From the IMG/VR virus record IMGVR_UViG_3300027887_000463, positions 9,371 to 73,370 of that record: a stretch of DNA of 64,000 bases; one strand, 5' to 3'. Below, piece after piece: positions 42,043 to 42,662 of the stretch. The translations under genes were made by a program, and so were the position numbers. This stretch comes from a virus. Position 1 is the first letter of the stretch, and every line of letters starts with the position of its first letter. The notes under the pieces were generated by a model that saw nothing but the letters and a program-made list of their open reading frames with translations, did not search any database and had not been told where the DNA came from.

Positions 42043-42121
42043 AACACTCCTATACTATCCGGATGTCCGGAAAATGAACTAATAGTTATTTAATATGTTT
42101 ATAATATTAATAACTTGTTTA

Positions 42122-42542
42122 CAGTGGAATACTCCCACTGCAGTGACGGACCAGCTGTCATGAGCATGCGTCGTCAGTTCCTGATTACGATCGATGATCA
42201 TAGCCACAGTGTGGCCATAACACCTGCGAGCGCTTCAGGGTAACCTCAGGGCTCGGCGACCCGGGGACCAGGTCCCTAGATAGCCTTCATGTTACGTAGT
42301 AGTGCGCAATTGAGACCTTCCAGGTACCGAACTTAAGCAGGAATGGGGAATTCCGCAGGCTCAAGTTGTAGTATACTGTAGGTATAGATGTGCCCAGTCG
42401 GGCTAGCGCGCTATGTCAACATCGCGATGCTTTTAAACCGATGTATCTCGAGGCGCCCGCGGTTCCCGGATCCGAGCTGAGGAGCTCAGCAGCCGGCCGC
42501 CGGAGGCGTGCACGAGTACTTCGAACGATATCCTTCGTGACC
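42122..42542. other. GC-rich non-coding island saturated with distinct 6-bp palindromes (polylinker-like)
   Basis: 32 different palindromic hexamers occur once each. Examples are CTGCAG 42138, CAGCTG/TCATGA/GCATGC abutting at 42152-42169, CGATCG/ATCGAT/TGATCA 42188-42200, GAATTC 42348, CTCGAG/GGCGCC/CCGCGG 42447-42462, GGATCC 42468, GAGCTC 42482 and GATATC 42527. The island is flanked by direct TGTTTA repeats (42116-42121 and 42543-42548). Confidence 0.8.
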
Positions 42543-42662
42543 TGTTTAATTAATACATTTAATAATATTATATAAACTTAGCCCCGAATTTTATCAAGGT
42601 CCATCACTTTGTACGTACCACGAAACGTCGTACACAGTGAATAAAGAACTATAGAAGTGCAA

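Follow-up and report, generated by a model that had tools for sequence, protein, structure and literature searches.

The DNA analyzed here, hereafter the window, is a stretch of 64,000 nucleotides corresponding to bases 9,371–73,370 of the 73,370-bp linear virus record IMGVR_UViG_3300027887_000463 of the IMG/VR database (CheckV completeness 37%); in comparisons with other genomes the window's own genome is designated G000. The source record is that of a jumbo phage, and it encodes a single 2,031-amino acid RNA polymerase joining β and β′ domains, a baseplate wedge, a portal, an RNA ligase/polynucleotide kinase (PNK) and a GT1 glycosyltransferase. On the minus strand the window carries, in this order, genes for a MoxR AAA+ ATPase and a VWA-domain protein, an intergenic slot, a small open reading frame (ORF) designated ORF110, a structured RNA region and the gene for a retron-type reverse transcriptase (RT). 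The slot is occupied by a GC-rich core, the island, which contains a large number of different 6-bp palindromes resembling restriction sites. The coordinates of these features are collected in Table 1.

Table 1. Features of the island slot and of the adjoining genes (positions in the window).
Feature	Position	Strand	Basis
Palindrome-dense GC-rich core (island); 32 different 6-bp palindromes, restriction-site-like	42122–42542	.	Recount, shuffles, neutral-rate drift versus L024
Variable intergenic slot, from the VWA stop codon to the ORF110 start	42043–42662	-	Palindrome-enriched also in 8 relatives
Upstream flank (past the VWA stop), AT-rich; inverted-repeat arm 42559–42572; GTACGTAC motif	42543–42662	-	97–100% identical to L024; conserved across 5 relatives
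Downstream flank; AT-rich inverted-repeat arm 42100–42113; CCGG-rich motif; AGGAG ribosome-binding site of ORF110	42043–42121	-	45 bp identical to L024; conserved in L004/L026
MoxR AAA+ ATPase (bpMoxR, RavA-like) that partners the VWA protein	44226–45380	-	Pfam bpMoxR/AAA_5; kept in relatives
VWA-domain protein (ViaA-like), whose gene immediately precedes the slot in all relatives	42663–44222	-	Pfam VWA_2, NCBIfam ViaA-like
ORF110, small conserved ORF (~110 amino acids), directly downstream of the slot	41710–42042	-	Homologs in relatives, 32–71% identity
RNA region with strong structure, adjoining the RT gene on its upstream side	41364–41712	-	RNA fold z −6.98
Retron-type reverse transcriptase (St85/Sen2 family)	40479–41363	-	NCBIfam retron_St85_RT 4.5e-70; PADLOC retron RT models

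The recount of the core gave exactly the number reported in the first-pass annotation, which had been made from the letters of the DNA alone: 32 palindromic hexamers, all of them distinct and located at the positions listed there, with the runs of abutting or adjacent sites at 42152–42169 and 42447–42462. Dinucleotide-preserving shuffles of the core contained 7.5 ± 2.6 palindromes (maximum 18), and the observed number was reached in none of the 2000 shuffles. The probability that all 32 would be distinct in a random draw according to composition was about 2e-5. When windows of 421 bp were slid along the 64 kb and along the whole 73,370-bp record, the median was 6 palindromes and the maximum 34, with all the top windows located at the island. 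The entire slot contained 43 palindromes in 620 bp (z 9.2). The GC content of the island was 0.56 versus 0.42 for the window, in agreement with its earlier description as GC-rich. The additional sites which had been placed at the island edge are present as well, and TTAATTAA does lie there (42547–42554), but GGTAACC was found inside the island at about 42237.

The excess concerned palindromes of exactly 6 bp (24 versus 5.6 expected), their extension to 8 or 10 bp occurring at about the chance rate (~25%). Nearly all the 4-bp palindromes of the window's island were completed to 6 bp, so that only 8 free 4-bp palindromes were left versus 22.4 expected. Hairpins with a 6-bp stem and a short loop were not enriched (2 versus 0.7), nor were longer inverted repeats, and the cruciform-rich origin suggested in the first-pass annotation was not borne out. 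A cruciform or inverted-repeat element was rejected on the same grounds, only 6-bp palindromes being enriched, with a DNA fold z of −2.95. Outside the island the genome mildly avoids palindromes, the median observed-to-expected ratio (O/E) under a first-order Markov model (Markov-1) being 0.84 versus 0.98 for non-palindromes; the island thus runs opposite to the genome-wide trend.

Logan contigs from independent runs cross the island together with the phage flanks in samples from the wetland source (2017), from soil of 2012 (two samples) and from soil of 2015, and within the island they differ at no more than one position. One of the 2015 soil contigs (sample S3) spans the whole of 41950–42750 with one mismatch and one 1-base deletion; both junctions of the island are therefore bridged by a single contig in this sample, and the junctions are bridged in sample S2 too. 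Within the species the island is stable over samples and years. A blastn search of 72,556 plasmids and 50,697 phage genomes gave no match to the island, none of its exact 22–27-mers recurred in other viral contigs or in prokaryote genomes, and the order of its sites matched no standard polylinker or multiple cloning site. Engineered or vector DNA was ruled out by the absence of plasmid and phage matches and of exact 22–27-mers elsewhere, together with the support from multiple samples, and an assembly chimera was ruled out by the independent contigs continuous across the junctions. The island DNA is real and natural.

Relatives were searched for with the VWA protein and their DNA was then compared, which gave nine jumbo-phage genomes with VWA proteins 54–95% identical to that of the window: L004 (95%), L024 (93%), G001 (also L002; 89%), L025 (81%), L026 (74%), L029 and L030 (67%), L032 (63%) and L033 (54%). 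In all nine, the VWA stop codon is separated from the following small ORF, a member of the ORF110 family, by a GC-rich, palindrome-dense spacer. The excess of palindromes in these spacers corresponded to z values of about 3.5–11.6, each of them unmatched in 300 shuffles. The densest slot was that of L024, with 52 palindromes (45 distinct) in 629 bp, and in the 103.7-kb G001 record the slot was the densest 400-bp window. The GC-rich palindromes were of more different kinds than expected from composition (combined p ~1.6e-6), an effect driven by G000 (p = 0.001), L024 (p < 0.0001) and L025 (p = 0.012). Metagenome sample 3300032516 was found to hold two distinct members of the lineage, G001 and L030, each with an island of its own.

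The spacers of the window and L024 are homologous, with flanks 97–100% identical and a core of about 400 bp at about 61% identity. Since the latter value is comparable to the 67% identity of these two genomes at the third codon positions of the VWA gene, the sequence of the core evolves about neutrally. Both cores remain palindrome-dense, with 31 palindromes in the window and 38 in L024. Palindromic hexamers were kept intact between the two in 45% of cases versus 26% for GC-matched non-palindromic hexamers (p ~0.07 each way). Alignment of the cores failed beyond this closest pair, and in the distant relatives only the conserved flank motifs could be aligned. The element is natural, conserved in position and enriched in palindromes of exactly 6 bp, and its palindrome density is kept despite the drift.

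The repeats at the island edges had led the first-pass annotation to suggest a resemblance to an insertion with target duplication. The TGTTTA copies at 42116–42121 and 42543–42548 exist, as do the AT-rich inverted repeats, whose arms at 42100–42113 and 42559–42572 are 93% identical. An empty site was found in none of the nine relatives, all of which have a core in the slot, and the island-less relatives for which that annotation proposed to look were thus refuted. The TGTTTA copies and the inverted repeats sit in flanks shared with relatives that have different cores, and they consequently give no evidence of target-site duplication. Conserved palindromic motifs occur in the flanks of all the relatives (42590–42662 and 42043–42075, minus strand), namely the 8-bp GTACGTAC and a CCGG-rich motif, TCCGGA, beside the ribosome-binding site of ORF110. 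The conserved flank motifs may mark the boundaries of a cassette.

The genes on both sides of the slot form a cluster that recurs in the relatives. The MoxR and VWA genes (42663–45380, minus strand) adjoin the island in every relative, and Pfam describes such pairs as part of 'MoxR-vWA-beta-propeller ternary systems'. A 227-amino acid ORF at 45377–46060, which is without a family match, may be a third component of the MoxR–VWA system. ORF110 gave no match in Pfam, PADLOC or NCBIfam and shows no known domain or fold; its AlphaFold model (pLDDT 73.5) had no match in the PDB and no evident DNA-binding fold. The RT scored just over the cutoff of the NCBIfam model retron_St85_RT, and its gene follows that of the VWA protein at a distance of about 1–1.7 kb in every relative whose contig reaches that far. 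The structured region upstream of the RT gene is likely the retron non-coding RNA (ncRNA; msr-msd), although neither this region nor the slot matched an Rfam family. The island itself was rejected as the msr-msd, with no Rfam match and with ORF110 and the separate structured region lying between it and the RT gene. In addition, a template/variable pair of a diversity-generating retroelement (DGR) was rejected, no second copy of the island being present in G000 or G001. The RT and the structured RNA (40479–41712, minus strand) make up a phage-encoded retron-like system, which all the relatives share as a component of the MoxR–VWA, island, ORF110 and RT cluster. A search of prokaryote genome contigs revealed no non-phage bacterial relatives of the module.

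Several other features of the record were observed. The RNA polymerase gene (46266–52361, plus strand) is one ORF with a TTG start, in which the β (Rpb2) and β′ (Rpb1) domains are fused as in jumbo phages. Homologous fused RNA polymerases of 2,009–2,332 amino acids adjoin the module in relatives, and the copy in o6P6PySV has a LAGLIDADG homing-endonuclease domain. An ORF of 3,241 amino acids (17566–27291, plus strand) probably encodes a giant virion protein. The end of the record (window positions 62000–64000) is high in GC, about 0.50 per 2 kb and locally about 0.65 at 63640–64000, with codon-like runs of GCC; genes for a GDP-mannose dehydratase and a Band_7 protein lie close to it, and this part may represent host-derived DNA or a chimeric assembly of the contig end. 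Neither phage nucleus/tubulin (PF00091) nor N6 methyltransferase (PF01555) genes were found in the 37%-complete record.

The polylinker-like look of the island, with its dense, mostly unique classical restriction sites, some of them abutting, would fit contamination with synthetic or vector DNA, or a chimeric assembly. This explanation is scarcely credible, as the 2012 and 2015 soil contigs run continuously into the phage flanks, each of the nine relatives has a different version of the island at this locus, and neither plasmid, phage, viral and genome contigs nor known multiple cloning sites offered a counterpart. The direct and inverted repeats at the edges would suit a mobile element that recently entered an empty site, with TGTTTA as the target-site duplication. 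This is very improbable: the slot holds a core in all nine relatives, both kinds of repeat belong to flanks that stay conserved where the cores are unrelated, transposase is absent, and G000 and G001 contain no further copy of the island. More weight is due to the possibility that the island is a functionless, neutral by-product of site-specific mutation that generates palindromes, such as strand switching or hairpin-primed synthesis at a hotspot of replication or repair. Such a process would agree with the conserved AT-rich flanks whose imperfect inverted repeat delimits the slot, with the fast drift of the core, and with palindromes that are short and lack longer inverted-repeat partners. 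Quasi-palindrome correction and related processes, however, yield longer perfect palindromes and stem-loops, while only 6-bp palindromes without hairpin enrichment are found here; the stability of the island within the species, the lack of templated internal repeats and the tendency of palindromes to persist between relatives also argue against a mutational origin, which we consider unlikely without dismissing it.

Two further explanations, both of which we regard as rather improbable and to the same degree, start from the genes downstream. The island might be a platform to which a protein of the module (ORF110, MoxR–VWA or a retron RT complex) binds by reading dyad symmetry loosely, and from which expression of the ORF110–retron operon is regulated. 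The island does lie directly upstream of ORF110 and the retron operon, with the ribosome-binding site in the conserved flank, and the module is conserved in every relative. Sites of one regulator would nevertheless share a motif, whereas the palindromes of the island all differ; ORF110 has no visible DNA-binding fold, and MoxR and VWA are not DNA-binding families. Alternatively, transcription of the slot in the direction of the operon that follows it might yield a structured or self-complementary RNA, possibly part of the retron ncRNA or template or a regulatory leader, in which the palindromes would be self-complementary pairing patches. The fold of the slot is in agreement with this, with z −6.4 on the coding strand (20 shuffles) versus −3.1 on the other strand, and so is the presence downstream of a retron RT gene and of an RNA region with strong structure. 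Against an RNA role, no Rfam family was matched, the retron ncRNA is more likely at 41364–41712, and the cores are too divergent for covariation. Furthermore, the palindromes are symmetric on both strands, and an RNA role would give no reason for palindromes of 6 bp.

The explanation that we prefer, tentatively, is that of a natural cassette, conserved in the lineage and selected for many different 6-bp palindromes, which would serve as a decoy or sink, or as a sensor, for the type II restriction-modification (R-M) enzymes of the host. The slot would be a fixed intergenic site within the conserved cluster of MoxR–VWA, small ORF and retron RT genes in jumbo phages of soil and wetland. Selection would hold the number and the diversity of 6-bp palindromes, this being the size of type II R-M sites, while the remaining sequence drifts freely. 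The island could then engage the sequence-specific double-stranded DNA enzymes of the host that is entered, mainly those of type II R-M, and this engagement might be that of a multi-site decoy or sink or that of a sensor of enzyme activity. Among the interpretations offered by the first-pass annotation, the decoy or sink is retained as the most direct reading, as a hypothesis, and the structured RNA draws some support from the fold of the slot; artefact, insertion and cruciform were not sustained.

The genes adjacent to the island constitute a conflict-type module, with a retron-Sen2-like RT and a MoxR–VWA pair. In the retron-Sen2 (St85) toxin-antitoxin system a GATC site of the multicopy single-stranded DNA (msDNA) senses Dam methylation, and methylation of this DNA triggers the toxin (10.1101/2020.06.22.160242). 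This precedent and the conflict-type neighbourhood make a sensing role conceivable. It is possible, though we think it doubtful, that the island is the counter-defence or sensing cassette of the MoxR–VWA, ORF110 and retron RT module, in which the library of sites would engage or titrate host R-M enzymes or signal their activity, such as methylation or cleavage, to the retron-type system. The island would then amount to a DNA-encoded decoy or tripwire of multiple specificities, with a site diversity that stays constant while the sequence turns over.

Several points weigh against the restriction-site cassette. The role in restriction is one that we infer, and binding or cutting of the island by any enzyme is hypothetical. 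Enzymes that cut a decoy would thereby cut the phage genome that carries it, unless the phage DNA were somehow protected. The test of palindrome retention between the window and L024 is only suggestive at its p of ~0.07, and distinctness beyond chance is limited to the densest variants (G000, L024 and L025). The presence of palindromes in the islands tracks their genome-wide over- or under-representation (Spearman rho 0.29–0.45). CATATG, ACGCGT and TTGCAA are absent from all nine islands, where 5.3, 4.8 and 3.8 copies would be expected, and some palindromes avoided by the genome (CATATG, ACGCGT and CCTAGG) are missing from every island. Since the island palindromes follow the genome-wide O/E and avoided sites are missing, the islands show no preference for the sites of enzymes that the phage seems to face; a decoy would be predicted to prefer the sites that the genome avoids, and no such preference was observed.

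A literature search on natural clusters of restriction-site decoys returned nothing relevant. To our knowledge, no natural element has been described in which a phage lineage keeps dense and diverse restriction-site palindromes in a fixed slot under drift. A phage lineage that keeps dozens of such palindromes would point either to an unrecognised way of handling host R-M, by a DNA decoy or sensor, or to a palindrome-making mutational hotspot, and either would be new. In addition, metagenomic DNA that looks like a 'polylinker' can be natural, a point of importance when metagenomes are screened for contamination.

In comparison with known systems, the island resembles synthetic multiple cloning sites in its dense, mostly unique 6-bp sites, some of them abutting, and in its high GC content. 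It differs from them in being natural and found in multiple samples, with different sequences in nine relatives, in the filler between its sites and in an order of these that matches no known multiple cloning site. Repetitive extragenic palindromic sequences and bacterial interspersed mosaic elements (REP/BIME) repeat a single consensus within each family, and mutation hotspots of the quasi-palindrome type give long perfect palindromes; these are palindrome-rich like the island, in which, however, the palindromes are all different, 6 bp only and without repeats. DGR variable regions share with the island a hypervariable segment close to a reverse transcriptase, but they belong to a coding gene, at its 3′ end, change at adenines and are copied from a template repeat, while the island is intergenic, drifts approximately neutrally and lacks a template in both G000 and G001.

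Phage genomes commonly lose restriction sites, an avoidance which shows that they respond to selection on palindromes. The present genome mildly avoids palindromes elsewhere, whereas the island is a local, presumably selected excess. Phage T7 Ocr is an anti-restriction protein that mimics DNA; the aim hypothesized for both would be to titrate or block host restriction enzymes, the candidate decoy in the present case being DNA itself. Retron-Sen2 is a defence element whose restriction or methylation sites serve to sense modifying enzymes, and in the present phage an RT of the St85 family is encoded 1 kb from the island; the region adjoining the RT gene upstream is, however, a likelier ncRNA than the island.
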